Source of the DNA: Candidatus Omnitrophota bacterium
GTDB lineage: Bacteria > Omnitrophota > Gorgyraeia > Gygaellales > Profunditerraquicolaceae
NCBI GenBank assembly: GCA_042570405.1
Contig: JBHPGR010000004.1
Location: 4,474-68,473 of the forward strand
Length of the DNA stretch: 64,000 nt
Direction of reading: 5' to 3'
A program made the position numbers and the translations under genes. Positions 30,254 through 53,565 of the stretch are shown piece by piece; position 1 is the stretch's first letter; every line of letters starts with the position of its first letter. The notes under the pieces are model-generated. The model did not search any database. It was not told where the DNA came from and saw only the letters and a program-made list of their open reading frames with translations.

Positions 30254-30258
30254 CGCAA

Positions 30259-38469: not shown

Positions 38470-38498
38470 TGAGAACCTCTTCTTTTTTTACGGTTATC

Positions 38499-39458: not shown

Positions 39459-39553
39459 GAAAATTCGCCTTGTATGCGGATTTTCGATATTAACCTCCGT
39501 TTTGTTAAAACCCTGCTAAGACATTGCCAAAGTTAAAGTTATACTTTATATAT

Positions 39554-39582
39554 ATAATAAAAGATTAACCCGTAAATGTCAA
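39554..39582 (-). promoter_or_regulatory. Sigma70-type promoter candidate TTGACA-N17-TATTAT for the Wza/BY-kinase operon
   Basis: Hexamers read on the reverse strand: -35 at 39577-39582 and -10 at 39554-39559. Confidence 0.4.
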
Positions 39583-39605
39583 GGATTAAGCTCAAGCTTT
39601 TCCCT

Positions 39606-41384
39606 TCACCGCAACTGCGCCTCTTCTCTGCTAAAGATCCCCTCCTGGCCGCTGAAAAGCCGGCTAAATTCGCTGTTTTTCCCCTTTAGATCCTGCGGCT
39701 TACCCACGATCATCTCGCCCGGCCTGAAGAAGCAATAGGCCAGGCCTGCTTTCATCACCGTAGATAAGCGGTGGGATACGGTAATTAATGTTAGAGCTTC
39801 TTGCGAACTCTTTATATTGGAGATAATCTTCTCCTCGCTAGCAGAATCCATCGAAGACATCGCTTCATCAAGGATCAGGATCTTGGGCTGTTTGATCAGG
39901 GCGCGGGCGATGGCGATCTTCTGCTTCTGCCCTTCAGAGATCTTACAGGCATCTTCACCGATCACGGTCTGATAGCCTTGCGGCAGAATCCGGGTGAATT
40001 CATCTACGCCTGCTATCTCTGCTACCTTGAGTATCTCGTCTTTCGTGGCTCTGGGTTTGGCGTAGCTGATATTATTCTCTATAGTATCGTTCCACAGTAA
40101 TGCCTCCTGTAGGGCAAAGCCTATTTGGCCCTTTAGGCAACGAAACTTTAAATCCTTGATATTATGCCCGTCGATTAAAATCTCACCCTCCCAGGGGTCA
40201 TAGAGCCTGGCGATTAAATTCAAAAGCGTGGTCTTGCCGCAACCCGAAGGCCCGGCAATAGCAATATGGCTTCCTCCCTCAATAGAAAAAGACATCTTCT
40301 TTAAGATCAGTTCTTGGGGCTTATACCCGAAATTGACATTACTAAAGGATACCTGTCCTTTTGTAAAGAGTATATTTTTTGCTCCCTTTGCCTCTCTGAC
40401 CTTGGGCTTCTGGTCTAAAACCTCAGCAATCCTGCGGCAGGAGACCAAACCGATGGTAACGGTATGGAAGAAAGAGGCGAATTGGTTCTGCAGGCCGATT
40501 AACTGATACAAGTAAATCATAATCGCTGCCAGGCTGCCTATGGTTAGTTGCCCCTTGATCACCTGATATCCGCCGTAAAGGCTGAGCAGGCCGATAATCG
40601 CCTTGGTAGTTACTTGGATGATCGTCGAATTAATCATCCCCATCCTAACCGTCTTGACATTTATGCGTATATTTACAATTACCTTCTTAAGATACTCCCT
40701 GATACTACTGATCTCTTTTCCGAAGACCTTGATTAATTTGATGTGTGAAAGCGTCTCATCTAAATTAGTGAATATGCTCTCGGAATTTCTCAAAAGGCTC
40801 TCATAGACCTTTTTTATCTTTCGGCTAAAATAGTAAGGCGGGATATATAAAACCGGAGCCAGGCACAAGGCAACCAGAGCCATCCTCCACTGAAGATAAA
40901 ATACGATGACTAAAATAAAGAGCAACTTGGTGAATATAAAAAACGCCTGGGGCAAAGTATTAGTGATAAATCCGGTGATCGCGCTTAAATCGTTCTCTAT
41001 CTTATAGATCTGTTCTCCGGTGGATTGCTCGAGAAACCAACTAAAGGAGAGATTCTGGGTATGCTTAAACAACTTTTTCTGTAGGTCAAAATTTACCCTT
41101 CTTTTGATATACTGCTCTAAAAATTGCTTTGTCACCGCCAGCAGCTCGTTGATTAAAAAAATACCTCCTGCAATAAGGCCGAGTAAAATAAATCTTCTTA
41201 AGTCTTTATTCAGGAACCCTTGGTCAATCACGAGTTTGGTTAGATACGGATTAAGCAGGGCAAGCAGGGCCGTAGCATTACTTAAGATAATTATCACCAG
41301 CCACTTTTTGCGGTAGGGGAAAAGGTGCTTGAGAAACCTAAGGATCAAATTGATCTGCGCCTTAAACATCTGTTTTCTTTTCAA
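39606..41384 (-). CDS. ABC exporter, fused permease and ATPase (MsbA/bacteriocin-exporter type), no C39 peptidase domain
   Basis: Six TM helices, then Walker A GPSGCGKTT, signature ISEGQKQKIAIARAL and Walker B ILILDEA. Confidence 0.85.
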   Translation of the reverse strand: MKRKQMFKAQINLILRFLKHLFPYRKKWLVIIILSNATALLALLNPYLTKLVIDQGFLNKDLRRFILLGLIAGGIFLINELLAVTKQFLEQYIKRRVNFDLQKKLFKHTQNLSFSWFLEQSTGEQIYKIENDLSAITGFITNTLPQAFFIFTKLLFILVIVFYLQWRMALVALCLAPVLYIPPYYFSRKIKKVYESLLRNSESIFTNLDETLSHIKLIKVFGKEISSIREYLKKVIVNIRINVKTVRMGMINSTIIQVTTKAIIGLLSLYGGYQVIKGQLTIGSLAAIMIYLYQLIGLQNQFASFFHTVTIGLVSCRRIAEVLDQKPKVREAKGAKNILFTKGQVSFSNVNFGYKPQELILKKMSFSIEGGSHIAIAGPSGCGKTTLLNLIARLYDPWEGEILIDGHNIKDLKFRCLKGQIGFALQEALLWNDTIENNISYAKPRATKDEILKVAEIAGVDEFTRILPQGYQTVIGEDACKISEGQKQKIAIARALIKQPKILILDEAMSSMDSASEEKIISNIKSSQEALTLITVSHRLSTVMKAGLAYCFFRPGEMIVGKPQDLKGKNSEFSRLFSGQEGIFSREEAQLR

Positions 41385-42432
41385 TCATCCTCTGCAGCCG
41401 GGCCAATTCACAGTAATATTCTATGGGCTCCTCCTCTTTATCCTTCTCTAGATATGCCCTTCCCGGACACCAATTACATAATCTCTTTAGACTACAATCC
41501 CTGCATGCCGAATCGGTTAAAAAGCTCTTTTCTCTTACCTGAGATATTAATCCATCTAAAGCATATCCCAGATCCGTTTTAAGCAGATTAAAATCCGTTT
41601 TGCGCATCAGGTTGCAAAGGAAGATATTCCCCAAAGGGTCGATATGAAAACCATCCCCGCCTCCGATGGCGCAGGTAAATAAGTTAACGGTGGGGGGGTG
41701 GGGGTTGGAATCCTGTAATCGCCAATCATCGCAAGCTGATAGCCGTCTATCATCTGCGTCTAAACCCAAAATCTCTTTTGGTGAAATCCTTAAATTACAG
41801 GGAGTTTTGTCGCCGTTAAGCCGCGGATACAAAATATGGCTGGGCCTAAACTCTAAGCCTAAACCCTCGACAAGCTTCTTGATCTTAGTCAACTCTTCTA
41901 AATTATCCTTGGTGACCTGGGTCTTGATTTTCAAGGGGATTCTTTCTTTTATAAGCAAATTAATCCCCTTCATGAGCCTTAAAAAAGAACCTTTAACCCC
42001 GGAGATCTTCTCATATAGTTGCTCGGTAACCGCGTTCAAGGTCAGCTCAATCACAAAGGGAGGTTTGCTTTTCAAAAATTTAACTATTTTCTTATCTAAT
42101 AAATAGCCGCTGGTAAAGACACTGACAATAAAACCTTTTTGCTTAGCATAAGAATAGATCTCCAAGAAATCAGCCCGCGCCAGGGGATCCCCTCCGGTCA
42201 GGCAGAGCCAGATTACCCCGGCCTGATAAACCTTATCTAAAATAGTTTTTACTTCCTGAGTCTTAAGTTCTTCTTTAAAATAGGCAGGCTGATTATAGCA
42301 ACCTGTGTAGCAATGTCGGCAGTACAGGGGGCATCTAAAGGTCAGCTCAAACTGGCAGACATTGGATCTTTTGATGCGCAAGTTTTTCTTATGCGTCCTT
42401 AAACTAAAAATTCTATATTGGATTTCTTTCAT
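41362..42432 (-). CDS. Radical SAM/SPASM domain peptide-maturase-like enzyme (paralog 3)
   Basis: FRCPLYCRHCY is the CxxxCxxC motif and the C-terminal Cys cluster is CRDCSLKRLCNWCPGRA. Start moved to MKEIQY, which gives the same N-terminal length as the two paralogs and removes a 104-nt overlap. Confidence 0.8.
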   Translation of the reverse strand: MKEIQYRIFSLRTHKKNLRIKRSNVCQFELTFRCPLYCRHCYTGCYNQPAYFKEELKTQEVKTILDKVYQAGVIWLCLTGGDPLARADFLEIYSYAKQKGFIVSVFTSGYLLDKKIVKFLKSKPPFVIELTLNAVTEQLYEKISGVKGSFLRLMKGINLLIKERIPLKIKTQVTKDNLEELTKIKKLVEGLGLEFRPSHILYPRLNGDKTPCNLRISPKEILGLDADDRRLSACDDWRLQDSNPHPPTVNLFTCAIGGGDGFHIDPLGNIFLCNLMRKTDFNLLKTDLGYALDGLISQVREKSFLTDSACRDCSLKRLCNWCPGRAYLEKDKEEEPIEYYCELARLQRMIEKKTDV

Positions 42433-42445
42433 ATTCACAGGGCTT

Positions 42446-44065
42446 TTATAAAAGTGGCTTGCTTCTCGGGATGAGGTCCGGGGGTTGCTGGCCAACAATG
42501 TCAACAATTGTTCTATGTTTTTTAAAGGAATATTCAAGGATTTTATCATAAATTTTAAGCATCTTTATCGCTTTAGGTTTATCTATATTTCCCAGGGTAT
42601 GTTTAAACGGATAAAAAAATCTGAAGGGCAGTCTTTTATCATAAATAATCTCTATACCATAATTTCCCGGGTTTAAGAATGCGGGGTTTTTAGGGACCTG
42701 ATAATATACATTGAAGATGCCGCAATCTGTGTTTAGTGCTTTTGAATGGTTTGCCAGGAAAGAAATCGTATCAAATGCCTCTTCAACAGTTTCAGAGGGC
42801 AGGGCGATTATCGATTGAAAATAAACATTTAATTTCAAATTACGGCTATCTTTTATAATCCTTTTGATCACCTCTACCCTGGTTCCCTTGCCTATAAAAT
42901 CAAGGACCCTTTGGTTTATGGATTCCAAACCAAATCCCAGCATCGAACAGCCTGCCCGCTTGGCTAAGCTAAGGGTCTCTTTATCAAATCCATCGTCAAA
43001 ACGCGCCCAGGCCCACCAAGATAGCTTTATCTTTTCTTTTAAGATTTTCTTTGATATTTGCCTCATTTGTGATGGAGAAAATACGGCATTTGATATCATC
43101 AGATGTCTTATCCGATATTTTCTAATGAGTTTTTTTATATCTTTTATAACCAGGCCCGGCGATTTCTCCCTGTATCTTGATTTAGGCAGCGGCAAATCCA
43201 CGCAAAATATGCATTTATTCCAGTAACAACCGCGTGAAGTTTCAAAGGAAGCGGTTAGTTTTCTTTTTGAATTAAAGTATTTTCTAAGATTTAAGCCGTC
43301 GAAGTCCGGGGCGGGAAGCATGTCCATATCTTCTTGGGTGATTCTTGAGCTAAGCTTCCAACTCCCCTTATCTTGATAGATGAGATTTGGGACCCTGGAT
43401 AACGCCTTATTATTTCTAATCGCATTTATCAGCTTAAATAGCGGTGTTTCGCCTTCAAAATAAATAAGGTAGTCATAAAAACTATTAAAATCATTTCTTT
43501 TTTGAAGTTCTTCGCGATAGTAGGAAACCCACTGCCCTCCAATGACTATTTTTGTTTCGGGGAAATATTTCTTAATCAAATATCCGAAGGTGAAGCTCGC
43601 CATGACCTGAGAAGGGCAGATTATTGAAAATCCTATAAGAGAAAAATCTTGCTTTTTTATTTTTAGGAAAACCTGTTTATAAAAAAAATCAACAAAGGGG
43701 TTTTCTTTTTGATCAGCGATGTAACGATGCAGAAATTTTGCTGAAAGCATCATTTCCGTAAAGGCAAAAGACGAGCCCGGATTAACCTCGAAATCATAAT
43801 CAGACGAAATTTCTGCTCCTTTATATTGTAAGATTTTATGATAATAAACCTTTTTTTTAATTTTATTCTTCCTATATCCTGAAGTAAATATCTTCTCCAG
43901 CCTATTTTTTTTTATATAATCAAAATAACATATATTAAGATCGCCCTGCGCTACATTTATTCCTTTTGACTTTAAAAAACCGGCAAGGGCAGGAGTCCCT
44001 AAGGGCGGAACAGCTCTGTCGTAAGTAGGGGGAATAAATAGAGCTATTTTTTCTTCTTTGGCCAT
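42446..44065 (-). CDS. B12-binding domain radical SAM protein
   Basis: N-terminal Rossmann-like B12-binding region plus RGCYWNKCIFC (CxxxCxxC). Confidence 0.8.
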   Translation of the reverse strand: MAKEEKIALFIPPTYDRAVPPLGTPALAGFLKSKGINVAQGDLNICYFDYIKKNRLEKIFTSGYRKNKIKKKVYYHKILQYKGAEISSDYDFEVNPGSSFAFTEMMLSAKFLHRYIADQKENPFVDFFYKQVFLKIKKQDFSLIGFSIICPSQVMASFTFGYLIKKYFPETKIVIGGQWVSYYREELQKRNDFNSFYDYLIYFEGETPLFKLINAIRNNKALSRVPNLIYQDKGSWKLSSRITQEDMDMLPAPDFDGLNLRKYFNSKRKLTASFETSRGCYWNKCIFCVDLPLPKSRYREKSPGLVIKDIKKLIRKYRIRHLMISNAVFSPSQMRQISKKILKEKIKLSWWAWARFDDGFDKETLSLAKRAGCSMLGFGLESINQRVLDFIGKGTRVEVIKRIIKDSRNLKLNVYFQSIIALPSETVEEAFDTISFLANHSKALNTDCGIFNVYYQVPKNPAFLNPGNYGIEIIYDKRLPFRFFYPFKHTLGNIDKPKAIKMLKIYDKILEYSFKKHRTIVDIVGQQPPDLIPRSKPLL

Positions 44066-44075
44066 TATTTTCTTA

Positions 44076-45005
44076 TCAGAGCTTTCTTACAAAACTTATA
44101 ATCTTTTTATTATTCAGAAACCCCAGATTATAACAGTTTACTTCTTTAAGCAAATCCTGACAAAAGGAAACTATATTCTCTAAATTCTGCTTATCCCAGA
44201 AAGTAGGAAAAAGTGCAGGATAAAGCTGATTAAAGGCCGCTTTTTGAGAGATCTGTCTTGTATTATTATTTGGGGAGTGGTGAATAAAAAACAGTCTTTC
44301 AAGCGGGGCTGCCTCCATCTTTGAGTAAAGATAATCGCTGAAATCACCGTACCAGGGACAACCATAGATAAAATATCTGCCGTTAAGCCTGCGCACAATA
44401 ATCCGGTCGTCATTTAAGATCATTGCCCGGCTGAACCGGTTCCAGATCCTGGCAGTGGTAGATTTTCCTGCGCCGGATTTCCCGGCGAAGAGCAGGCCCC
44501 TGCCGTTAATATCTTTTAATCCTATCCCGTGCACAATGATCCCCTTTTTGTGCAGGGCTAAATAGCTGATTAAAAGCACCTGGATAAAATCATAAATCAG
44601 ATCATCCGGCCTCCAGGCCTTGCCTTTTTCATCCTTAGGTATAAGATAGGCAGTTACTCGGTCAAAATTTTTATTTACCAGCATCAGTTGTTGCTTGCTT
44701 TTTAAAGGACTTTTATAGATGTAGCTATCGCGTTTTTTAAGTAAGCGCCAGTTTTCGTTGCCGTCCTGAAAGTGTCGGGTAATGAATATCGGCTTTGCAT
44801 TCTGTACTTTGGGTAATTGATCCACTATCTTTACCTTGATTCTGATCTGCGGTCTTGCTCTGCCGTGATAGAAAAAGTTTTTAAAACGCTCGGGGATACG
44901 CTGCCTCTCTTCCTTTTTGGTGTAGGGCTTGAGCCTAAACTTACTTTGCATCCGGATGATGATATCGGAAATCTTCAGCCTCACTGTCACATTCTTCATT
45001 TTCAT
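44076..45005 (-). CDS. HPr kinase-related P-loop protein (HprK C-terminal-domain-like)
   Basis: GIIVHGIGLKDINGRGLLFAGKSGAGKSTTA. Start moved to MKMKNV because the 17 upstream codons in the track are the heptamer repeat array. Confidence 0.6.
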   Translation of the reverse strand: MKMKNVTVRLKISDIIIRMQSKFRLKPYTKKEERQRIPERFKNFFYHGRARPQIRIKVKIVDQLPKVQNAKPIFITRHFQDGNENWRLLKKRDSYIYKSPLKSKQQLMLVNKNFDRVTAYLIPKDEKGKAWRPDDLIYDFIQVLLISYLALHKKGIIVHGIGLKDINGRGLLFAGKSGAGKSTTARIWNRFSRAMILNDDRIIVRRLNGRYFIYGCPWYGDFSDYLYSKMEAAPLERLFFIHHSPNNNTRQISQKAAFNQLYPALFPTFWDKQNLENIVSFCQDLLKEVNCYNLGFLNNKKIISFVRKL

Positions 45006-45014
45006 ATGCCTTAT

Positions 45015-45045
45015 ACTTACGACTGAAAACTTACGACTTACGACT
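45015..45045. repeat. Heptamer array A (acttacg act gaaa acttacg acttacg act), solo arm
   Basis: Read directly from the sequence. It overlaps the last codons (SRKS*) of the 45031-46083 gene. Confidence 0.8.
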
Positions 45046-46083
45046 GAATAAGTCACTCACTAGCTGCGCCTTAGCGCGGCTCTCAGGTGCACAGGAAGTA
45101 AAGCTGCGGTTATAAAGCCAACTCCTTGCCGGGCAACGTTTACAATAAGCTTTCAGGCTGCAACTGCTGCATTGATAATCCTTATCTAGCGCGATACCTC
45201 TCTGGAATCTATTTAATCTCTGCCAGCATTCTTTTAAAGAAGACTCCAATATATTATATCTGGGATGATCGATCATCAGGCATAGCTTCAATTCTCCCTG
45301 AGGGGTAATTGCTGCCTGGGTCAAACCTGCCCCACAGGCAAATAGATTGCCGTTATTATTTTCGTAGCCTGTGATTTTTAAATCACAAGCGTCAGAAAAA
45401 TCCTCTTTCAGCCCTGATTGTTTTACCATTCTGGCTATAGTCTTGCCTCTATAACGATACGGCTCTTCAGAACCATCCAGGCGCCGGAAAAGTGAATCAT
45501 CCAATCGGTGCGGGGCGCCTAAGGAGGTAGAAAAATCTTCGATTTCTTTGATCTCGGATGCGTTATCTTTCAAGACGCAGGTCTTAAACCCTAAATTGAC
45601 CCTGTTTTTGTGTAAAATATCAATGGTTTTAAATACACGATTACGGGAACCTGCGACACCGCTAATACGTTCAAAACTCTTTTTTCTCATTGCCGGAATA
45701 GTAATATCCAGCTTATTTATTTTTAAGCGATGTAACTCTTGAGCGATCCCTTGATTAATCAGTGAGCCATTAGTATATACGATCATCTGGAAGCCCTTTT
45801 CTCTGGCATAGCGCAATATCTCTATTATATCATTTCTAATAAAGGGTTCGCCTCCGGTAAAACCTAAATAAAAACAACCTATATCTTTCAACTGGTCTAA
45901 AATAGAGAATATCTCCTTAGTCTTAAGTCCTCCTTTTCTTCTATAGCTTTGCGGCAGATAACAGTGTTTACACTTAAAATTACACCTGTAGGTGAGCTCA
46001 AACATTACCCGCAGCGGGAAGTTTTCTTCCTTTGCGGAATCGTGGATCTGCTTCCAGAAACTATTATACGATCGAGTTCTCAT
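45031..46083 (-). CDS. Radical SAM/SPASM domain peptide-maturase-like enzyme (paralog 2)
   Basis: YRCNFKCKHCY, and C-terminal CSSCSLKAYCKRCPARS. Confidence 0.8.
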   Translation of the reverse strand: MRTRSYNSFWKQIHDSAKEENFPLRVMFELTYRCNFKCKHCYLPQSYRRKGGLKTKEIFSILDQLKDIGCFYLGFTGGEPFIRNDIIEILRYAREKGFQMIVYTNGSLINQGIAQELHRLKINKLDITIPAMRKKSFERISGVAGSRNRVFKTIDILHKNRVNLGFKTCVLKDNASEIKEIEDFSTSLGAPHRLDDSLFRRLDGSEEPYRYRGKTIARMVKQSGLKEDFSDACDLKITGYENNNGNLFACGAGLTQAAITPQGELKLCLMIDHPRYNILESSLKECWQRLNRFQRGIALDKDYQCSSCSLKAYCKRCPARSWLYNRSFTSCAPESRAKAQLVSDLFSRKS

Positions 46084-46089
46084 TATTTT

Positions 46090-46120
46090 AGTCGTAAGTT
46101 ATAAGTCGTAAGTTGTAAGT
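46090..46120. repeat. Heptamer array B (agt cgtaagt tataagt cgtaagt tgtaagt), inverted partner of array C
   Basis: Read directly from the sequence. By hand alignment 27 of 31 positions match the reverse complement of 46471-46501. Confidence 0.85.
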
Positions 46121-46464
46121 TTCTTCTGAAATCCAAAAAGCATTCTTCCTATCTCATCGCACATCTCATTTAAGTTCTTGGAATCTCCTTCTTTAAGATA
46201 GCCTAAATCTTTGGCAAGCAGGATATGATATTTAGTCTCCTCTAAAGATCCGTCGGCTATACTGATAAAATATGCATACTCTTTTTTACTTTTCCTTTTA
46301 AAGCCTTCGACTACATTTGTCGGTATTGAGGCGGCTGACCTTCTTATGTTTGCTACAAGGCCGAATCTTTCTTCTCTTGGAAAATCTTTAGTGACTTTAT
46401 AAATCTCAAGAACCAATCCGTGTGCTTTTTGCCAAACCTTTAAATCCCTAAAAGTTTTTATCAT
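46099..46464 (-). CDS. Four-helix-bundle protein of the 23S rRNA intervening-sequence (IVS) protein family
   Basis: FRDLKVWQKAHGLVLEIYKVTKDFPREERFGLVANIRRSAASIPTNVVEGF.R.S.KEY..F..IA.GSL.E is the family signature. Confidence 0.8.
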   Translation of the reverse strand: MIKTFRDLKVWQKAHGLVLEIYKVTKDFPREERFGLVANIRRSAASIPTNVVEGFKRKSKKEYAYFISIADGSLEETKYHILLAKDLGYLKEGDSKNLNEMCDEIGRMLFGFQKKLTTYDL

Positions 46465-46470
46465 CTTTTT

Positions 46471-46501
46471 ACTTACGACTTACCACTTACGACTTACGAC
46501 T
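46471..46501. repeat. Heptamer array C (acttacg acttacc acttacg acttacg act), inverted partner of array B
   Basis: Read directly from the sequence. It overlaps the last codons (SRKS*) of the 46487-47560 gene. Confidence 0.85.
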
Positions 46502-47560
46502 CATCTCTTTAGCCGTCGCCTCAGCCAGCTGGCAATAATAGGGGACCGGCGCCTCTTGATCCCCAGTCTCTAGATACGCCCTTGCCGGGCAGTAATAACA
46601 GAGCGGCCGCAGGCGGCAGGTCCTGCATTTAGAATCAGTTTTAAAGCGCGCATTTAAAACTTGGGGAAATACCTTATAGAAGCCTTTTTTAAAGGATTGG
46701 ATCTTTAAATCAACGCTGAATCTATCGGATAAATCACAGAATCTTAACCGGCCGTAAGGATTGATAAAAAATTCCTGCCGCCAGGCAGTGCAGTTATAGA
46801 GGTAATCAGCTCTTCTTTTCAAGCGGGGAAACTTACAATCAAGGCTACTTTTATACTCCTCCCAAAAATCCGGGTCCTGCTTTTTTACTTTTAATATTTC
46901 GCTAAAGGACAGCCTGTAATTTGTAGGCGTTTTATCCCGGTTAAACTTAGGATAGATCAGCGGGTCGTATTTAAAATGATACTTGCCGTTTTGCTTACCT
47001 AAAAAATCATCAGCAAAGGCCTTGATCTTGCCGATCTCATGCTTGTTCTGCTTAAGGCAATTAGATTTCAGGATCAAAGGGAGTTTTTTCTCCTTTAAGG
47101 CCTGAATCGCCTTCATCGCTTTTAAAAAAGAGCCGGGAACCCGTGTAATCGATTCGTAGGTTTTTTTAGTGATACCATTTAAAGTGATCTCTATAGAAAA
47201 GGGGGGGAATTTTAGTAAAAAATCGATGACTTCGCTCGTCAATGCCTGAGCGTTAGTAAAAAGAGTGACCATAAAACCCTTTTTTTTGGCATAGGCATAA
47301 ATCTCTAAAAAATCATCTCTTACCAGCGGCTCTCCGCCGGTAAAGCATAAACTAAAGCATCCCTGTTTTTGCAGTAAATCAAGGATCCTTTTCCATTCGC
47401 TGGTACTTAATTCCTTTTCTTTTTCCTCCAGCCCTTTAGAATAGCAATGGATGCAGTTTAAGTTGCATCTATAGGTAAGCTCAATATGGCCGGAAAAAGG
47501 ATGGCTTTCTCTTTTATTCAGCAGCCGGTAAAAAAAACGGCCCGATTGTAGCTTTTTCAT
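46487..47560 (-). CDS. Radical SAM/SPASM domain peptide-maturase-like enzyme (paralog 1)
   Basis: YRCNLNCIHCY, and C-terminal CRTCRLRPLCYYCPARA. Confidence 0.8.
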   Translation of the reverse strand: MKKLQSGRFFYRLLNKRESHPFSGHIELTYRCNLNCIHCYSKGLEEKEKELSTSEWKRILDLLQKQGCFSLCFTGGEPLVRDDFLEIYAYAKKKGFMVTLFTNAQALTSEVIDFLLKFPPFSIEITLNGITKKTYESITRVPGSFLKAMKAIQALKEKKLPLILKSNCLKQNKHEIGKIKAFADDFLGKQNGKYHFKYDPLIYPKFNRDKTPTNYRLSFSEILKVKKQDPDFWEEYKSSLDCKFPRLKRRADYLYNCTAWRQEFFINPYGRLRFCDLSDRFSVDLKIQSFKKGFYKVFPQVLNARFKTDSKCRTCRLRPLCYYCPARAYLETGDQEAPVPYYCQLAEATAKEMSRKS

Positions 47561-47578
47561 TTCATACCGCTGATACTG

Positions 47579-47839
47579 CTAAGTTTGTGTCCCTGAGGAA
47601 ACTGCCAGATAGCCGACACTCCCTGAGCTGCCGCAGGCATCAATCAAGGTCCTCGCTGACTCCACACCAGGTTTTACAGCTTCCATACAATAAGTTGGTA
47701 AATTTAGAAATCTTCCTTTCCGGTTACCAGCCAGCCAAACCCAACCGTGATTTCCAAAACACTCACAGGCTAATACTGCCTGTTCAGGGTTAAGTCTTAT
47801 GCGGGCGATCTCTGGTCTAAATCTTGGTTTTCTTGGCAT
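47579..47839 (-). CDS. Candidate RiPP precursor peptide (86 aa, 4 Cys, Ser/Gly/Thr-rich C-terminal tail)
   Basis: It lies between the PqqD-like gene and the first SPASM maturase. It has a strong SD (AAGGAGGAGAA-ATG), no recognisable enzyme motifs, and the sequence MPRKPRFRPEIARIRLNPEQAVLACECFGNHGW...CGSSGSVGYLAVSSGTQT. Confidence 0.5.
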   Translation of the reverse strand: MPRKPRFRPEIARIRLNPEQAVLACECFGNHGWVWLAGNRKGRFLNLPTYCMEAVKPGVESARTLIDACGSSGSVGYLAVSSGTQT

Positions 47840-47856
47840 TTCTCCTCCTTTTTTTC

Positions 47857-47935
47857 AGTTGTAAGTCGTACGTCGTAAGTCGTAAGTAAAAGCAGATACA
47901 TACCACTTACGACTTACTACTTACCACTTACGACT
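47857..47935. repeat. Heptamer arrays D1/D2 forming a 31-bp imperfect hairpin with a 17-nt loop
   Basis: D1 is 47857-47887 (agt tgtaagt cgtacgt cgtaagt cgtaagt) and D2 is 47905-47935 (acttacg acttact acttacc acttacg act). 27 of 31 positions are complementary by hand alignment. Confidence 0.85.
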
Positions 47936-48216
47936 TAAACTACCGCTTTAATCTCTTTTAGGTCCTTAAGTAACTTTTCCAGCTCCTTATCCGCTTGCCT
48001 TGGCGTCGTGTCAAACTCCTTAAGCACCTGCTTCTTGACTTGGGATAGCGGTTTTTTCCCGTCAAACATCTCCCAGACGCGCGCTGCGACTTTATTCAGG
48101 GAATAGATACAGCTTATATCATCGGATGTCTTATAAATAGGCACCAGTATCCTTTCATCGCCGATTACGCGGGTGACCATATTAGGGTTTTTGCGAATTA
48201 CAGCACTTGCCTCCAT
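47935..48216 (-). CDS. PqqD-family peptide chaperone (RiPP recognition element)
   Basis: 93 aa with the PqqD pattern: RVIGDERILV...IYSLNKVAARVWEMFDGKKPLSQVKKQVLKEFD...ADKELEKLLKDL. Confidence 0.8.
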   Translation of the reverse strand: MEASAVIRKNPNMVTRVIGDERILVPIYKTSDDISCIYSLNKVAARVWEMFDGKKPLSQVKKQVLKEFDTTPRQADKELEKLLKDLKEIKAVV

Positions 48217-49697
48217 CAGTATTTACCTCCTTTCAGCTGTTTTTCCAAAATTAACATCTTCTTCTTAAGACTAATTAGCCTACTCTTCCCCTCTTGCTTT
48301 AAGTGTAATTTATTTAAGCGGTTTAATCGCCTTTTAAAGAATTTATAATGAATCCTTACATATTTGATCATTTCGTCTTTATCAGCAATCTTTCTGGAAA
48401 CCCGCAAAAGGCCGATCAGCGGTTCTAACGTGCCCCAACCTAATCTTAAGGTATCTTTGTAAAAAATAGCGGCTTGAGAAAATTCTCCCTCCTTTTCAAA
48501 AATTCTGCCTAAAAGATAGTAGCCTTCAGGGTCTAAAGGTACCCTTCGCCTGTAAGAAAGCAGCCTTTCTTTGGCGCTTTTAAAATCTCCTGAATTGAAT
48601 TCTGCCTTTGCCAGGTTGAATAAAACCTGCGGTTTTACTTTTTTAAATGCCCCATTATTACCGCAGTAGTTTAATGCTGAACCTAAGAGATTTTTTGCCT
48701 TCTTAAGTTCTCTTCTTCCTAAGGCAATCGTCCCTAAGCCTGAAAGCGCTCCGGGATTATTTTTATCTACCCTTAAAATCCGAAAGAACTCTTTTTGCGC
48801 CAAAGAAAACTTCCTGAGCGACAGATAAAGCGCTCCATAATTGTTATCCTGGCTGCGGTAGGCAGGGTTAAGCCTGGCGGCTTTCTGGTAGTAAGCCTTG
48901 CTTCCTGTTGATTCAAAGAGATTGAAATATTTTGCTGCGCGATGACTGATTGCAAGTCTGCCTTTGAATTTGGAGTGCGAGAAACAAGCAGCGACCTCAT
49001 CCCCTAGATACCTGTATTTCATCGGCGTGAAACCACCGTTGACTGAATAGGCGATGGTAGTAATCTTAGGGGATTTAATCTTTTTCTTGAGGATACTTGT
49101 TAAATCTTTTGGTGAAATCCAGACCCTTCTCTTGCTGATATTCCGGGTATTCTCTGCGCTCAAAAGGCTGTCAATCACTAGAAAATCAGTATCGATATCA
49201 AGGAGTACATCCCTGCCTAAAACTGGTAGACTATCCAGAGTGCAGACCACAAAATTCCTCCCCAGGCACCTCATAGAGATCGAATCATTACTACTTTCTT
49301 TTAAAATAACCTTGCCGTTATTCTGAGGCCTAGTTAATCTTTTTAGAGTATTTTTGATTATCTTCCGGGATTTTTTGAACTCCTTGGCGCCTCCGGGGAT
49401 AACCCAGTAAAAATTATTAACTATCCCCTCCTCCATCGCCGGGTAGATGTAATTGCCGATGTTAGTCTGTTTATTGAAATCCTTTTCGTAGTGTAAGAAA
49501 TTAAGCGAATGTTCTAATTTTGCCTTTAGCTCTTTAATACTTCTTGCTTCGCTGACAACCTTTTCTATTGGCCTGGCCGGATAAACCACAAAATCAATGT
49601 GGGCATCCAGGTGTACCAAATCTAACCCCAAAACCTTGTGTCTGCGCCAGATCTTTAGAACCTCATCGTGATCTTCTACCAGAAATACATTCTTCAT
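48216..49697 (-). CDS. UPF0489-like (arginase/deacetylase-fold-like) N-domain fused to TPR repeats
   Basis: N-terminal VFLVEDHDEVLKIWRR...LVHLDAHIDF resembles the UPF0489 signature. The C-terminal half has several TPR-like repeats (YYQKAARLNPAY, ALYLSLRKFSLAQKEF, LLGRIFEKEGEFSQAAIFYKDTL). Confidence 0.45.
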   Translation of the reverse strand: MKNVFLVEDHDEVLKIWRRHKVLGLDLVHLDAHIDFVVYPARPIEKVVSEARSIKELKAKLEHSLNFLHYEKDFNKQTNIGNYIYPAMEEGIVNNFYWVIPGGAKEFKKSRKIIKNTLKRLTRPQNNGKVILKESSNDSISMRCLGRNFVVCTLDSLPVLGRDVLLDIDTDFLVIDSLLSAENTRNISKRRVWISPKDLTSILKKKIKSPKITTIAYSVNGGFTPMKYRYLGDEVAACFSHSKFKGRLAISHRAAKYFNLFESTGSKAYYQKAARLNPAYRSQDNNYGALYLSLRKFSLAQKEFFRILRVDKNNPGALSGLGTIALGRRELKKAKNLLGSALNYCGNNGAFKKVKPQVLFNLAKAEFNSGDFKSAKERLLSYRRRVPLDPEGYYLLGRIFEKEGEFSQAAIFYKDTLRLGWGTLEPLIGLLRVSRKIADKDEMIKYVRIHYKFFKRRLNRLNKLHLKQEGKSRLISLKKKMLILEKQLKGGKY

Positions 49698-50125
49698 TTT
49701 CTTACAAATAAGAATTGATAGGCCTTAATGACCAAGCGCCATAAAGGCAAAATAAGTAAAATAATGCGATTGATCAACCTCTGCCCTACTCCATCAACAT
49801 AGGCTATCCTATTTTCTTTCATCACGCCGATGACCTTGCCTAAAACTCTCTCCTGATTTATGGCTTCCGGCTGACTCCAAGATGCATCTCCCCGGGTATA
49901 GATCGAACATTGGCCGTTTGATTTGCTCTTTCTGACCAGACGGTGGCAGACTAATGAGCTATTGGACCTATGCAATACCAGGTCTCCTACTTCCAATCGA
50001 GATAAAGGCGTTTTTTTAACAAGCAGTTTATCCCTTTCCTTTAGAAATGGCCACATGCTAAAACCCCGGGCCTCAAAAAAAGACAGGTCTTGAGCTTGCT
50101 CTGCAACTTTAATCGCCTGATCCAT
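49694..50125 (-). CDS. S24/S26-family (signal-peptidase-I/LexA-like) serine peptidase
   Basis: ARGFSMWPFLKERDKLLV (GxSMxP), GDLVLHRS, HRLV, RGDAS. Confidence 0.6.
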   Translation of the reverse strand: MDQAIKVAEQAQDLSFFEARGFSMWPFLKERDKLLVKKTPLSRLEVGDLVLHRSNSSLVCHRLVRKSKSNGQCSIYTRGDASWSQPEAINQERVLGKVIGVMKENRIAYVDGVGQRLINRIILLILPLWRLVIKAYQFLFVRK

Positions 50126-50151
50126 TTTTTTGCTCTAAGAAAATACCGAGG

Positions 50152-51303
50152 TTAAGATTTAAAAAAAATATGCACTAATCGCCTGTAATAATGGCCGCTG
50201 TTTATCTGGGATAAAGGAAGCGTGAGTTTATGCGCCATTATATCAGGCGGCGGAAAAACTGTCCTTGCGATAAATCTTAATTTGCCAAAAAACCATCCCT
50301 GCATCGAAAGATAGGTCAAATAGGAAAGCTTCTGCGAACGTATACCGCGGCTAATAAAATAACTGAGCATTCTCTCGAAGAGGCTGAAGTGAACCGGCCT
50401 TAGCCTATTTAAAGCAGGAATATCGTAATCCAGAAGCCTTGAGGTAAGCCTCAGGGAACAATACAAAATCTGGGACAGGTTAAAACGCTGCGCTTCCTGG
50501 ATCACCAGATCCCAATCAAGTTGTTCTTGATATGTCCTTAAAACCTGCGCAATATCATAGATCAGGATCAATCTTTTAAAGCCGTGGGCAAAAGCGTGTT
50601 GACAGAGGTAAATCAATTGGTGCTCGGGTAAAAGCTTCCAGGTATTGCTCCCCTCTATTTTCAATGGCAGGGCAGCAGACCAGATCCTTTGCATATCGAT
50701 TGCGCTCACCAGACGGCCCAGGGGCCAGGTAGTATTGATCAGGTGCCAGTGCAGATGGATGAAGAAAGTAGCGGTGCGGCCTCCTCCATAAACAAGGGTA
50801 TTGATAGAAGAATCAGGGGAACTGACAAGAGAATCTTCGTAGTTTGCCGGGGAAAGATATCCTAAGGAGATCAAAACTTGATTTGCCGCAGGAAGATCCT
50901 CTCTTCTAACCAGAATATCGATATCATCCATGGGGCGTAAGGCTATGTTGGGGTAAACCGTATGGGCTAAGGCTATGCCCTTAAGCAAAATTAGCTTGAT
51001 TCCTGCCTGGTTAAAGGCGCTTAAAAGCTTCTTTAATTGTTCACTCAGCAGGCTGTTGCGGGCAGCAACCGTATAATAAAAACTCTTCATTTGTTTCCGG
51101 GTCTCTTCAGGAATAAGGCGATCGGCTGACTCTATCCGGGAGAGATTATTAAAGGCTAGCGCAAGGACTCCCTCTCTGCGGGCCTGATTAAAAAAATAAG
51201 CCCAGTCTAACTCTGGGCCTATCTCTTCCACAAGGTGCTTAAGAGAATCCGGCGTAATATCAGCACTCGCCAGGCAGCGCAATAACCGGTCCTGATTCTG
51301 CAT
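50152..51303 (-). CDS. Uncharacterised nucleotidyltransferase family protein (NTP_transf_5-like)
   Basis: LLKGIALAHTVYPNIALRPMDDIDILVRREDLPAANQVLISLGY is the family core. Confidence 0.65.
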   Translation of the reverse strand: MQNQDRLLRCLASADITPDSLKHLVEEIGPELDWAYFFNQARREGVLALAFNNLSRIESADRLIPEETRKQMKSFYYTVAARNSLLSEQLKKLLSAFNQAGIKLILLKGIALAHTVYPNIALRPMDDIDILVRREDLPAANQVLISLGYLSPANYEDSLVSSPDSSINTLVYGGGRTATFFIHLHWHLINTTWPLGRLVSAIDMQRIWSAALPLKIEGSNTWKLLPEHQLIYLCQHAFAHGFKRLILIYDIAQVLRTYQEQLDWDLVIQEAQRFNLSQILYCSLRLTSRLLDYDIPALNRLRPVHFSLFERMLSYFISRGIRSQKLSYLTYLSMQGWFFGKLRFIARTVFPPPDIMAHKLTLPLSQINSGHYYRRLVHIFFKS

Positions 51304-51330
51304 ATTTATTTTCTATTATACGGTTATTAT

Positions 51331-53215: not shown

Positions 53216-53217
53216 GG

Positions 53218-53454: not shown

Positions 53455-53537
53455 GACCTCTTCCCCTTAACTGATACTCAAAATCTTAAGATACTGCCCT
53501 CAAGTACTTACAACAAAGTATAAAGTACATTTTATAT

Positions 53538-53565
53538 AGTATATTATAGAATATGTATCTGTCAA
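53538..53565 (-). promoter_or_regulatory. Promoter candidate TTGACA-N16-TATACT upstream of the MerR gene
   Basis: Hexamers read on the reverse strand in an AT-rich 217-nt intergenic region. Confidence 0.35.

Follow-up and report, generated by a model that had tools for sequence, protein, structure and literature searches.

A Probable RiPP Cassette of an Uncharacterised Family with SynChlorMet-Like Architecture in an Exopolysaccharide Locus of an Omnitrophota Bacterium

Introduction

The locus presented here resembles the SynChlorMet (Scm) cassette in architecture and shares with it a PqqD homologue, an HPr-kinase-like "ScmC" protein, and PqqE-like SPASM enzymes. A second point of comparison is offered by lasso peptides, in which phosphorylation has been shown on Ser. 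In the case of the lasso peptide pseudomycoidin, an equivalent pair of kinase and nucleotidyltransferase leads to phospho-glycosylation and not to nucleotidylation, and PsmN-type enzymes attach hexoses to Ser-phosphate. The window, that is, the whole analysed stretch of 64,000 nt from an Omnitrophota bacterium, carries a cassette with likenesses to both.

Gene Content and Recurrence of the Cassette

The minus strand of positions 39606–51303 holds 12 non-overlapping, co-directional, and tightly packed ORFs. The "thirteen-gene" title of the first-pass annotation was a miscount, its own gene list also amounting to 12, while its domain assignments are borne out by profile matches and readable motifs, some of them below cut-off. 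The spacing it described (0–30 nt or overlaps) holds for most junctions, which overlap or are separated by ~10–26 nt, but not for the 95-nt gap between the PqqD and precursor genes, the sole exception, which contains a repeat hairpin. With an internal ATG taken as the start (45005 or 44999 for ScmC, 42432 for rSAM3), the two apparent long overlaps at these ORFs vanish.

The same gene set was found again in more than 40 independent loci, and therefore it is not due to chance. These loci come from Omnitrophota, Elusimicrobia, and other MAGs. Six components co-occur, namely PqqD, the precursor, three orthologous radical SAM/SPASM enzymes, and the ScmC/HPr-kinase-like P-loop protein. In detail, PqqD, rSAM1, rSAM2, ScmC, and rSAM3 are each present in 30–34 of the 37 loci with a length of 6 kb or more, on which all counts out of 37 are based. 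The ABC exporter, the NTP_transf_5 protein (in many cases a fusion with an S26-type peptidase), the B12 radical SAM enzyme, and the UPF0489-TPR protein are variable accessories. All six loci picked via ScmC alone carry a precursor of the same family. As a gene cluster the cassette is real, and it is widespread among uncultured Omnitrophota.

An intervening-sequence-like insert (46090–46501, minus strand) carries a four-helix-bundle gene (46099–46464; PF05635, 137 bits; TIGR02436, 124.6 bits) within inverted heptamer-repeat arms, which are 31 nt long, 87% complementary, and paired in the RNA fold (z = −2.96). This gene is lacking in most related loci and sits at the same spot in four of them; it is an rRNA-intervening-sequence-like element with flanking heptamer-repeat stems. 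The PqqD–precursor gap holds an "empty" (CGTAAGT)n heptamer hairpin (47853–47939), immediately 5′ of the ribosome-binding site of the precursor, with 35-nt arms (86% complementary), a 17-nt loop, and an RNA MFE of −36.2 kcal/mol (z = −5.1). At the rSAM2 stop and ScmC start, there is a one-armed remnant of the repeat (45015–45048), for which RNA folding gives no hairpin (z = 0.37). The remnant is oriented like the array at 46471–46504.

The Precursor Peptide

The 86-aa ORF (47579–47839, minus strand) contains four Cys and is preceded by a strong ribosome-binding site (AAGGAGGAGAA-ATG). Its leader occupies approximately residues 1–24 (MPRKPRFRPEIARIRLNPEQAVLA), whereas the core begins with C25-E-C27-F, has further Cys at positions 51 and 69, and ends in Thr. 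The peptide showed no match to curated families; it has 16 homologues, and the wider family comprises 787 clusters at 50% identity. Throughout the family, the leader of 24–27 residues is invariant (…LNPEQAVLxCxC, …RIRLNPEQAVLA) and the core is hypervariable with fixed Cys spacing. CxC follows the leader in 131 of 131 strict-motif members of an independent set and is replaced by CC in 7 of the 107 locus-derived peptides. An aromatic residue directly after CxC is found in 89% of the members, and the remaining Cys are spaced by 23 residues (IQR 21–24) and then by 13 (IQR 12–15). The peptides end in Ser or Thr in ~99% of cases (105/107 locus-derived, 136/136 in the independent set, and 8/8 in a further set), against a Ser plus Thr content of 21% in the cores overall. 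Four loci (L010, L026, L081, and L106) encode several differing copies each. Only ~76% of the members have a small residue in front of the first Cys, which leaves the cleavage site of the leader uncertain.

The 86-aa ORF genuinely encodes a precursor peptide. The reading of the cassette as a RiPP pathway is strongly supported, since a peptide with conserved leader and hypervariable core lies beside PqqD and SPASM genes in every related locus examined. A small ORF that is never kept next to PqqD, the pattern named by the first-pass annotation as evidence against its own reading, is the opposite of what was found, as the ORF is kept in all of these loci.

Peptide Binding, Processing, and Export

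The PqqD-type peptide-binding protein (RRE, 93 aa; 47935–48216, minus strand; PF05402, 41.9 bits) is, in most loci, encoded immediately upstream of the precursor and shows weak matches to the ScmD, lasso PqqD, and PQQ PqqD models. The S26B/SipW-like serine peptidase (143 aa; 49694–50125, minus strand) is proposed as the candidate leader peptidase. It scores below the cut-offs of Pfam Peptidase_S24 (21.7 vs. 23.3 bits) and TIGR02228 (46.6 vs. 51.85 bits), and 11 orthologues carry its Ser, His, and Asp boxes (G-x-S-M-x-P, C-H-R, and R-G-D-x-S) without variation. A hydrophobic helix is located at its C-terminus and none at its N-terminus. The ABC exporter (39606–41384, minus strand; 23/37 loci; ABC_membrane, 129 bits over residues 28–297; ABC_tran, 110 bits) lacks a C39 peptidase domain, as initially described, its transmembrane domain already beginning at residue 28.

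The Predicted Peptide Arginase

The gene product first described as a UPF0489-like/TPR protein (48216–49697, minus strand) retains both of these domains, and its assignment can be sharpened to a predicted PF12640 peptide arginase (Arg to ornithine). The arginase domain (PF12640/UPF0489, residues ~1–240; 39.9 bits, cut-off 27; NF052474, 48.5 bits) precedes the TPR region (~250–450), and the protein aligns motif by motif with the OspR structure 8brp. The six metal ligands H10, D31, H33, D35, D167, and D169 are invariant and agree with published arginase motifs. Arg makes up 6.9% of the cores in loci with the arginase gene and 2.7% in those without it (Mann–Whitney per locus, p = 2e-4, shared ancestry ignored). 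Conversion of core Arg to ornithine is proposed for the arginase-TPR protein.

The Kinase-Like Protein and the Nucleotidyltransferase

The HPr-kinase-like P-loop protein of the ScmC family (~307 aa) is encoded at 44076–45005 (minus strand). It retains a Walker A motif with N-D-D-R after it. In 26 ScmC homologues, the motifs GKSGAGKS, N-D-D-R, and P-W-H-G are invariant or nearly so, and D197 and D198 are invariant. Its likeness to HPr kinase is weak, with 20.9 bits in Hpr_kinase_C, where the cut-off is 33.3, and E ~0.04 in the PDB. The AlphaFold model has a pLDDT of 59 overall and below 50 over the P-loop domain, and with this poor model the best Foldseek match is the HPr kinase 1knx (E = 0.02). 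D197/D198 are likened, by an assumed and not an aligned correspondence, to D158/D159 of PsmK, whose D158A/D159A mutant, altered at the site predicted to bind metal, is inactive.

The "uncharacterised nucleotidyltransferase" (NTP_transf_5, 383 aa; 50152–51303, minus strand; PF14907, 200 bits) has orthologues in 20 of the 37 loci. In six loci it is fused to the S24/S26 peptidase, in parallel to the nucleotidyltransferase–B2 protease fusions of lasso clusters, and it is likened here to PsmN of pseudomycoidin. By this analogy, the kinase and nucleotidyltransferase pair most likely acts on the invariant C-terminal Ser/Thr. Speaking against it, the 86-aa precursor ends in Thr and not in the Ser on which lasso peptides are phosphorylated.

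Polysaccharide Context

The cassette is embedded in an exopolysaccharide (EPS) locus and is elsewhere mixed with polysaccharide genes. Upstream and co-directional are genes for a MerR regulator, a PEP-CTERM-type (ExeA-like) ATPase (TIGR03015, 248.6 bits), and an HD-GYP-type HD protein (HD_5, 85.8 bits; 51331–53454, minus strand); the ATPase–HD pair also precedes the cassette in three other loci. Downstream and co-directional are genes for a Wza-like polysaccharide export protein, a Wzc-like chain-length determinant/tyrosine kinase, and a Wzy_C/O-antigen-ligase-like protein (35060–39458, minus strand), and these genes adjoin the cassette also in 14 related loci. Altogether, glycan genes flank it not only in the window but also in 14 or more other loci, shared ancestry ignored. 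A second B12 radical SAM gene is located among glycosyltransferases at 62390–63820.

These surroundings bear on the explanation, regarded by us as unlikely, that the peptide functions within the polysaccharide system and is no free natural product. Its C-terminal Ser/Thr would be phosphorylated and glycosylated (by ScmC, NTP_transf_5, and glycosyltransferases of the cassette), and it would serve as an EPS primer, anchor, or carrier or as a co-exported matrix peptide. The position of the cassette between priming/glycosyltransferase genes and Wza/Wzc/Wzy genes, on one strand throughout, speaks for this explanation, and the association outlasts rearrangement, the EPS genes of L053 lying on the opposite strand. 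In L109–L112 glycan genes even lie within the cassette, with a GT1 gene (519–551 aa) directly after ScmC in L109, L111, and L112 and a Wzy_C gene in L110. Polysaccharide genes are located at most 10 kb away in all six ScmC-selected loci. The hexose transfer of PsmN-type enzymes and the likeness of the peptidase to SipW, the biofilm-matrix signal peptidase of Bacillus, point in the same direction. On the other hand, a hypervariable core is unexpected in a structural primer, the dedicated ABC exporter suggests that the peptide exits the cell alone, and L004, L011, L013, and L025 show no glycan genes in the available sequence. Moreover, GC3 is 0.33–0.57 in the cassette against 0.55–0.65 in the flanks, and the cassette, possibly acquired horizontally, may have been inserted into the EPS locus without being a functional part of it. 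To our knowledge, there is no peptide-primed bacterial exopolysaccharide of such kind.

Relation to the Scm Cassette

If the cassette were the Scm system itself, the 86-aa family would be its long-missing precursor. Besides the common architecture, ScmD and ScmC are the top NCBIfam matches of the PqqD and P-loop proteins, respectively, and PF27840 (ScmC) is the precomputed Pfam match of the P-loop protein and of more than 100 homologues. On the contrary, the Scm equivalogs remain far below cut-off (ScmC, TIGR04249, 29.6 vs. 125 bits; ScmD, 27.9 vs. 100; ScmE, ≤87.6 vs. 400; ScmF, ≤72 vs. 400), and three conserved SPASM orthologues are present here against two in Scm. Identity with Scm is thus judged very unlikely.

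Radical SAM Enzymes

The three radical SAM/SPASM maturases are rSAM1 (357 aa; 46487–47560; Radical_SAM, 83.6 bits; group in 34/37 loci), rSAM2 (350 aa; 45031–46083; 78.5 bits; 30/37 loci), and rSAM3 (41362–42432; 64.5 bits; 30/37 loci), all on the minus strand, the last probably starting at Met40 of a 395-aa ORF. Read from the translations, each has CX3CX2C and a complete seven-Cys SPASM motif; the Pfam SPASM model matched rSAM2 only, below cut-off (20.3 vs. 21.5 bits). Among solved structures, the sactipeptide enzyme SkfB (60 bits) is nearest to rSAM1, and rSAM2 is missing from the closest relatives, L006 and L030. None of the three reaches the cut-off of a curated maturase model and their best NCBIfam matches are the heme/cofactor enzymes AhbD and NirJ2 (110–130 bits), so that they cannot be assigned to a peptide clade from sequence alone.

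These matches would suit SPASM enzymes acting as cofactor or glycan modifiers of the polysaccharide locus, the small ORF being a regulatory or structural mini-protein, as would the glycan-rich surroundings and the additional B12 radical SAM gene among the glycosyltransferases. However, the AhbD and NirJ2 scores are all far under cut-off, the enzymes accompany PqqD and the peptide even at loci showing no glycan genes (L004, L011, and L025), and an N-terminus that is invariant, followed by a hypervariable remainder and combined with a conserved Cys framework, is the pattern of a maturase substrate, which makes this explanation highly improbable. The weakest alternative, a precursor of an excised redox cofactor or small molecule in the PQQ or mycofactocin style and not an exported modified peptide, shares the logic of PqqD with a PqqE-like SPASM enzyme and has MftC and PqqE among the better NCBIfam matches of the three enzymes (89–107 bits, far under their cut-offs), but it is hardly credible given that cofactor precursors have an invariant core and not a hypervariable one as here, that several different precursors occur per locus, and that the cassette includes an ABC exporter and a leader peptidase.

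The B12-binding radical SAM protein (539 aa; 42446–44065, minus strand; TIGR03975, 134 bits, cut-off 282; Radical_SAM, 47.5; B12-binding, 23.2) is proposed as a putative peptide C-methyltransferase. It is a variable accessory with orthologues in four loci, and its gene has the lowest GC3 of the cassette maturase genes (0.37).

Proposed Pathway and Comparison with Known Systems

The cassette would be transcribed inside the exopolysaccharide locus, and its products appear to be heavily modified small peptides of a family so far uncharacterised. We infer every chemical step, crosslinks, methylation, and phosphorylation included, from homology or co-occurrence. The PqqD-type protein would bind the invariant leader and hand the peptide to the three distinct radical SAM/SPASM enzymes, which may place crosslinks, most likely thioethers formed from Cys or bonds to the aromatic residue, on the framework of CxC-aromatic, ~23 residues, C, ~13 residues, and C. 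The ScmC/HPr-kinase-like protein would phosphorylate the C-terminal Ser/Thr, and the NTP_transf_5 protein would extend this phosphate, by analogy to PsmK and PsmN on pseudomycoidin. In the window, the accessory arginase-TPR protein may turn the three core arginines into ornithine and the accessory B12 enzyme may methylate the peptide. Finally, the membrane-tethered S26B-type peptidase would cut off the leader and the ABC transporter would export the product, which is probably a surface, matrix, or competition factor tied to glycan production and may itself be glycosylated.

No published mention of the cassette was found in the literature search, and none of the NCBIfam and Pfam models of characterised RiPP maturases reached its cut-off, in agreement with the original view that the cassette fits no characterised RiPP class. 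From the SynChlorMet likeness also suggested at that time, the architecture and the PF27840 match stand, whereas all four curated Scm models failed. Taking the proposed pathway and its context together, the locus is probably a RiPP cassette of an uncharacterised, Omnitrophota-centred family with an architecture akin to that of Scm.

Organization of the Cassette

The window lies within a 72.8-kb contig of a Candidatus Omnitrophota metagenome-assembled genome (MAG), and all of its sizeable ORFs are carried on the minus strand. Between positions 39606 and 51303, the ORF listing contains 12 non-overlapping genes on this strand, and not 13 as counted in the first-pass annotation. In the order of transcription, they encode an NTP_transf_5 nucleotidyltransferase (51303-50152), an S24/S26-like peptidase (50125-49694), a UPF0489-TPR protein (49697-48216), a PqqD homolog (48216-47935), a product of 86 aa (47839-47579), the radical SAM/SPASM enzyme rSAM1 (47560-46487), a four-helix-bundle protein (PF05635/TIGR02436; 46464-46099), rSAM2 (46083-45031), the HPr-kinase-like P-loop protein ScmC (about 45005-44076), a B12-binding radical SAM enzyme (B12-rSAM; 44065-42446), rSAM3 (about 42432-41362), and an ABC exporter (41384-39606). 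The tight packing that had been claimed for this operon holds for junctions which overlap or leave gaps of 10-26 nt, but not for the 95 nt that precede the 86-aa ORF.

The domain scans reproduced every domain call of the first-pass annotation. The hits to the Pfam SPASM model, the B12-binding domain, Hpr_kinase_C, and the S24 peptidase are under the curated cut-offs, but with catalytic motifs that are intact in all of these cases. As read from the translations, rSAM1, rSAM2, and rSAM3 all contain the CX3CX2C motif and the seven-Cys SPASM pattern (C-X12-G-X4-C … CX2CX5CX2C … C). In a scan for promoters and terminators, the counts did not rise above chance, and the only two good sigma-70-like matches are found upstream of the gene for a MerR regulator and in the gap between the ABC exporter and Wza-like genes.

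The Precursor Peptide Family

The 86-aa product is identical to the NCBI protein ACFL1K_01555, its gene is preceded by a strong Shine-Dalgarno sequence, and no Pfam or NCBIfam model matches it. A word-indexed search returned 16 homologs of 67-86 aa. When 1.84 billion cluster representatives were searched with a profile of the family, 787 clusters matched at E ≤ 1e-3, of which 571 also reached E ≤ 1e-10.

The N-terminus of these peptides is invariant in the alignment, M-P-(R/K)-K-P-(K/R)-F-(R/K)-P-x-(I/V)-x-R-(V/I)-(K/R)-L-N-P-E-Q-A-V-L-x-C-x-C, and the sequence beyond this CxC is not alignable. Despite this variability, a framework is kept in the core across 229 nonredundant members. A Tyr, Trp, or Phe directly follows the CxC in 89% of them, the third Cys is located 23 residues after the CxC (interquartile range [IQR] 21-24), and the fourth, which is usually present, lies 13 residues past the third (IQR 12-15), followed by a tail of ~18 residues. 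The core has a median length of 58 aa and contains 3-4 Cys.

Of the 107 peptides extracted from the fetched loci, 105 end in Ser or Thr, as do all 136 peptides of an independent set of representatives; the last residue is Ser in all eight peptides of the loci picked through ScmC, and Thr in the window's own precursor. Ser and Thr together make up 21% of the core overall, compared with ~99% at this position. A conserved recognition leader, a diversifying core, and fixed reactive positions are the classic signature of a maturase substrate, and for these reasons the 86-aa ORF is read as the putative substrate of the cassette.

A Sec or lipoprotein signal was also considered for the leader, as its end (…AVLA-C) resembles a lipobox, but was rejected: there is no hydrophobic core, Glu and Gln are placed just upstream, and the residue before the Cys varies (A, S, T, Q, V, L). 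A literature search for the motif "NPEQAVL" found no description of it.

Several related loci (L010, L026, L081, and L106) carry two to five different copies of the precursor. Orphan precursor genes, with no maturase genes within 10 kb, are located in L009 (10001-10261) and L017 (9989-10192). Precursors can thus be encoded away from the cassette.

Conservation of the System across Loci

Scans with the leader located 23 loci in species-representative genomes (Omnitrophota, Elusimicrobia, MAGs labelled Planctomycetales, Verrucomicrobiota, NPL-UPA2, and Clostridia) and 267 further stretches in JGI metagenomes. The window's proteins were mapped onto the ORFs of the 37 loci with a length of at least 6 kb. 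The precursor is present in 35 of these 37 loci, rSAM1 in 34, ScmC in 31, and PqqD, rSAM2, and rSAM3 in 30 each. The remaining genes are less constant, that is, the ABC exporter (23/37), NTP_transf_5 (20/37), the S24 peptidase (19/37), UPF0489-TPR (15/37), and the B12-rSAM (9/37).

Among the locus proteins, the three SPASM enzymes form three separate orthologous groups, with a score against their own orthologs about twice that against their paralogs, which implies three different and conserved jobs.

Six loci on long contigs (among them L109-L112 and L114) were picked through ScmC homologs, without reference to the peptide, and all six contain at least one NPEQAVL-type ORF. The first-pass annotation had made its RiPP proposal depend on the retention of a small ORF beside PqqD. 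Such an ORF is kept in the related loci, and the idea that homologous loci never keep one fails decisively. The proposed RRE-dependent SPASM pathway is likewise supported by a small precursor gene next to the maturases, a conserved leader with a variable core, a PqqD-type recognition element (PF05402, 41.9 bits), and SPASM enzymes with the CX3CX2C and seven-Cys patterns. The RiPP nature of the cassette is thus well supported at the level of sequence; the individual reactions of its enzymes we infer.

Some loci showed further particularities. In L113 (938-7541), a standard PqqD-precursor-rSAM core is preceded upstream by four PqqD-domain genes alternating with additional radical SAM genes. Three of the four encode ~180 aa, which is double the normal size, and the locus gives the impression of an expansion or duplication of the system. 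AbiEii-type toxin genes are found inside or beside the cassettes of L109 (6953-7744) and L111 (1625-3862), the latter also with a Transposase_mut gene; it seems that mobile and toxin-antitoxin genes accumulate in these loci. In L004 (1461-9171), which is a related Omnitrophota contig, both DNA gyrase subunits directly upstream of the cassette contain inteins, with an Intein_splicing domain in GyrB and Intein_splicing plus LAGLIDADG domains in GyrA.

The Putative Kinase and Nucleotidyltransferase

An exact database look-up of the ScmC ORF with its upstream GTG start was empty because the real start is located downstream; a homology search then found the protein. Clustered at 90%, its homologs number at least 440. 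Identity is 59-74% among the best 120, all of them named "hypothetical" and nearly all assigned to PF27840. The motifs GKSGAGKS, N-D-D-R, and P-W-H-G are invariant or nearly so in 26 homologs.

Hpr_kinase_C matches ScmC with 20.9 bits (cut-off 33.3), and a profile comparison against the PDB gave E = 0.04. An AlphaFold2 model based on the 26 homologs was of poor quality, as its pLDDT averaged 59 and stayed below 50 in the P-loop domain, and the top Foldseek match of this poor model was 1knx (E = 0.02, TM 0.18). From the Foldseek and PDB-profile results, an HPr-kinase/PEPCK fold is weakly favored for ScmC.

ScmC shows the features of PadeK/PsmK-like kinases, that is, a Walker A loop followed by the acidic pair in N-D-D-R, together with peptides of which ~99% end in Ser or Thr. 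The Asp pair is assumed to correspond to the predicted D158/D159 metal-binding site of PsmK. In pseudomycoidin, PsmN adds one or two hexoses to the phosphate; it was described as a member of an uncharacterized nucleotidyltransferase family, and such enzymes are sometimes fused to the B2 leader protease in lasso clusters (PMC6993621, PMC8498205). Based on this description, PsmN would belong to PF14907. In six of the loci studied here, NTP_transf_5 is fused to the S24/S26 peptidase. By analogy, the near-universal C-terminal Ser/Thr, the Walker A and Asp-Asp motifs, which are both intact in ScmC, and these fusions would fit a phospho-glycosylation logic.

Proposed Tailoring Enzymes

PF12640 is the peptide arginase family, which hydrolyzes Arg to ornithine in RiPP cores, and its motifs EEH(N/H)EAF, DXHXD, and LDIDLDYFSC together bind two Mn ions (PMC12703449). 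UPF0489-TPR passes the threshold of this family (39.9 bits, cut-off 27) and has the respective motifs EDHDEVL, DAHID, and LLDIDTDFLV. Each motif finds its counterpart in the alignment with the OspR structure 8brp, and the six Mn ligands are invariant in 11 orthologs. The protein remains below the FlmR/OhkR subfamily model NF052474 (48.5 bits vs. 350). Arg makes up 6.9% of the core in loci with the UPF0489-TPR gene, where every core has at least one Arg, and 2.7% in loci without it (per-locus Mann-Whitney p = 2e-4, a test which ignores kinship). The window's core has three Arg. The protein resembles the known members of PF12640 (OspR, FlmR, OhkR, and PbsE) in its Pfam score, its three motifs, its six ligands, and the Arg-containing RiPP cores that accompany it, but differs from them by a C-terminal TPR domain of ~250 aa. 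The precursor type of the cassette is absent from those listed in the 2025 survey of peptide arginases (PMC12703449). This young family would thus gain a new precursor type and a TPR-fused form.

The Ser/His/Asp boxes of the peptidase are of the S26B/SipW type and are kept in 11 orthologs, and its only hydrophobic helix is C-terminal. These two features suggest a membrane-tethered cytoplasmic leader peptidase, placed beside the ABC exporter. A cut of the leader after …AVL(A/S/T) is plausible from the alignment, although the residue before the first Cys is small in only ~76% of the precursor members. The B12-rSAM is closest to the RiPP C-methyltransferase subfamily TIGR03975 but falls under its cut-off. 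A second B12-binding radical SAM gene (62390-63820, minus strand, 476 aa), at the head of the upstream glycosyltransferase block, is not an ortholog of it; its nearest models are HpnJ, BchE, and ladderane-type enzymes, all below cut-off.

The Four-Helix-Bundle Insert and the Heptamer Elements

The four-helix-bundle gene is flanked by 31-nt inverted arms (46090-46120 and 46471-46501), which consist of CGTAAGT heptamers in tandem and are paired with each other in the RNA fold prediction. Arrays of this heptamer are found at 45015-45048, 46087-46120, 46471-46504, and 47853-47939. They are confined to the cassette (19 matches vs. 0.7 expected) and appear nowhere else in the 64 kb. The array at 47853-47939 forms an empty hairpin (-36 kcal/mol, z = -5.1) just 5′ of the ribosome-binding site of the precursor, and a one-armed remnant is located at the rSAM2/ScmC junction.

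The arrangement resembles the intervening sequences of 23S rRNA, in which a PF05635 ORF is likewise placed in the loop of a long inverted-repeat stem. It differs in its position between the protein-coding rSAM1 and rSAM2, in stems made of tandem heptamers, and in the empty and one-armed copies in two other intergenic gaps. Rfam has no match anywhere in 38000-54000; accordingly, the hairpins do not belong to a known RNA family, and the insert is not within a 23S rRNA gene. The heptamer structures look like a small mobile element of the intervening-sequence type which lives in the gaps of the operon. If the stems are cleaved, the polycistronic mRNA could be severed beside the precursor gene.

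Both the insert and rSAM2 are missing from the closest related loci, L006 and L030. A GTAAGTgGTAAGT remnant is placed exactly at their rSAM1/ScmC junction (11325-11345 in L006, 2447 in L030), which fits a deletion by recombination between two same-orientation heptamer arrays such as those seen in the window. PF05635 genes recur between the precursor, rSAM1, and rSAM2 in four order-mapped loci, that is, L040 (3922-4314), L051 (1839-2267 and 3718-4077), L111 (7017-7382), and L112 (1902-2303 and 3754-4113). Two others were found outside these loci, in L033 (2334-2634) and L075 (1376-1768). In L051, the flanking inverted arms are 45 nt long and made of a different heptamer (CGTATCA/CGTAGCA).

The four-helix-bundle protein was also compared with the Avd protein of diversity-generating retroelements (DGR), an assignment rejected at 51 bits against a cut-off of 80 (NF033474). 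No reverse transcriptase was found among the scanned ORFs of the window, a scan which left about a dozen ORFs of at least 110 aa in 5189-21900 outside.

The Polysaccharide Context

Upstream of the cassette and codirectional with it are genes for three GT1/GT4-type and one GT9 glycosyltransferases, a methyltransferase, an SGNH hydrolase, the second B12-rSAM, a WecA-like priming transferase, a response regulator, the MerR regulator, a PEP-CTERM-type ExeA-like ATPase, and an HD-GYP-type protein. Wza-like, Wzc-like, and Wzy_C genes follow downstream. With glycan genes on both sides, the cassette lies in the middle of an exopolysaccharide (EPS) locus, a setting which is added here to the picture of the first-pass annotation. 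An exosortase/PEP-CTERM system was considered and rejected, as the ORFs that were scanned include no exosortase and the scores of the flanking EPS models are under the equivalog cut-offs.

Genes for EPS export, chain length, the ATPase, or HD proteins are also found beside the cassette in other loci (L001, L006, L008, L012, L016, L021-L024, L028, L053, L060, L074, L099, and L105), with L053 as a rearranged case where the EPS genes are on the opposite strand. In the loci picked through ScmC, glycan genes are located inside the cassette. For instance, a GT1 gene of 519-551 aa directly follows ScmC in L109, L111, and L112, Wzy_C follows it in L110, and two GT4 genes, a WecA-like gene, and Wzy are found after the ABC gene in L114.

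The GC3 of the cassette genes (0.33-0.57) is below that of the flanking EPS genes (0.55-0.65), with the lowest values in the four-helix-bundle gene (0.33) and the B12-rSAM (0.37). This difference suggests a horizontal arrival of the cassette, and especially of these two genes. Both the lower GC3 and the absence of glycan genes in some related loci count against a purely functional link with the EPS. The link itself is taken as real, and its nature may be peptide glycosylation, coregulation, or a shared surface function. A covalent bond between the modified peptide and the exopolysaccharide is conceivable, but very improbable. In that case, the C-terminal Ser/Thr of the peptide would be phosphorylated by ScmC and phospho-glycosylated by NTP_transf_5 and the glycosyltransferases of the cassette, and the peptide would serve as a primer or anchor when the glycan is polymerized and exported through Wzy/Wzc/Wza. 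The result would be a surface glycan primed by a ribosomal peptide, with a hypervariable crosslinked peptide head which might serve in cell-cell recognition.

Two PilZ-domain proteins are encoded downstream of the EPS genes (15000-30300, minus strand), as are two histidine kinases, accompanied by a receiver protein, and a block for type II/IV secretion or a pilus (T2SSE, T2SSF, PilM/PilN, and a prepilin-type N-methylation protein). Together with the HD-GYP-type gene beside the cassette, these genes suggest that surface structures are under the control of c-di-GMP throughout the region.

The repeated embedding among polysaccharide genes suggests a role of the peptides in surface or matrix biology, and not one as classical antibiotics. 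The Omnitrophota, host-dependent nanobacteria, are an uncultured phylum of very small cells; a surface or matrix role, if true, would be one of few functional handles on them.

Comparison with Known Systems

The cassette had been likened to the SynChlorMet (Scm) cassette, of which we know of no characterized product. The likeness stands as far as the architecture is concerned. Both systems combine a PqqD homolog, an HPr-kinase-like P-loop protein, and several PqqE-like SPASM proteins in one operon, and the P-loop protein of the window and its homologs belong, by precomputed assignment, to the Pfam ScmC family PF27840. It does not extend to the four curated Scm models, all of which failed. ScmC reached 29.6 bits against 125 for its equivalog TIGR04249, with only residues 164-279 aligned, and the PqqD homolog 27.9 against 100 for ScmD (TIGR04248), although this is its best match. 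The scores of rSAM1, rSAM2, and rSAM3 were 87.6, 75.9, and 74.3 bits for ScmE (TIGR04250) and 57.5, 68, and 72 bits for ScmF (TIGR04251), against 400 in each case. The cassette further differs by three, and not two, conserved SPASM orthologs, an identifiable precursor family, its accessory genes (NTP_transf_5, an S26-type peptidase, an ABC exporter, an arginase, and a B12 radical SAM enzyme), and its distribution in Omnitrophota, Elusimicrobia, and relatives, which is not that of Scm. Because all four equivalog models fail, the cassette can be taken as a sister system of Scm and not as a member of it.

The Scm-like combination of PqqD, SPASM, and HPr-kinase-like proteins has been without a precursor since it was first catalogued. 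A family of ~790 clusters, with a sharp leader, a fixed Cys framework, and a near-invariant C-terminal Ser/Thr, is now supplied for such a system, and through it the chemistry of the three conserved SPASM enzymes and ScmC becomes testable. The literature searches found no description of the cassette system, either under HPr kinase, PqqD, nucleotidyltransferase, and radical SAM in combination or in surveys of Omnitrophota biosynthetic gene clusters, and under SynChlorMet or ScmC with radical SAM neither Scm nor the cassette system is described.

Phosphorylated and phosphoglycosylated lasso peptides (paeninodin with PadeK, pseudomycoidin with PsmK/PsmN) share with the cassette an HPr-kinase-like protein, a nucleotidyltransferase, a PqqD-type RRE, and an ABC exporter. 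Their substrates end in Ser, and their nucleotidyltransferase is sometimes fused to the leader protease, as it is in the cassette loci (PMC6993621, PMC8498205). On the other hand, maturation in the cassette would proceed through three SPASM enzymes and an S26-like leader peptidase, and the last residue of the window's peptide is Thr. The domain scans of the 12 cassette proteins showed neither an Asn-synthetase-like lasso cyclase nor a transglutaminase-like B2 protease, and thus this is not a lasso pathway. To our knowledge, the module of kinase and nucleotidyltransferase was previously restricted to lasso peptides; by analogy, it would now extend to a different RiPP scaffold.

With sactipeptides and ranthipeptides (AlbA, SkfB, StsB; SCIFF-type), the cassette has in common Cys-bearing cores and SPASM maturases with an RRE, and SkfB is the solved structure nearest to rSAM1. 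The conserved Cys framework is compatible with Cys sulfur-to-carbon thioether crosslinks, without being proof of them. In contrast to these systems, the RRE is a separate protein and not part of the enzyme, each peptide has three different maturases, and the core is much longer. The curated sactipeptide models (AlbA, SkfB, StsB, and others) gave 64-80 bits against cut-offs of 300-850. Judged by these scores and features, the cassette is no curated sactipeptide or ranthipeptide system.

A cofactor pathway of the PQQ or mycofactocin type is ruled out by the hypervariable core, and the three SPASM enzymes score 85-94 bits for PqqE (cut-off 381) and 89-107 bits for MftC (cut-off 265).

In conclusion, neither the lasso class, nor the curated sactipeptides and ranthipeptides, nor the PQQ/mycofactocin pathways accommodate the cassette, in agreement with the first-pass annotation, which had found no characterized RiPP class to fit. 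By the evidence of its sequences, the cassette resembles an RRE-dependent SPASM RiPP pathway in the way it works, and the Scm cassette in its construction.
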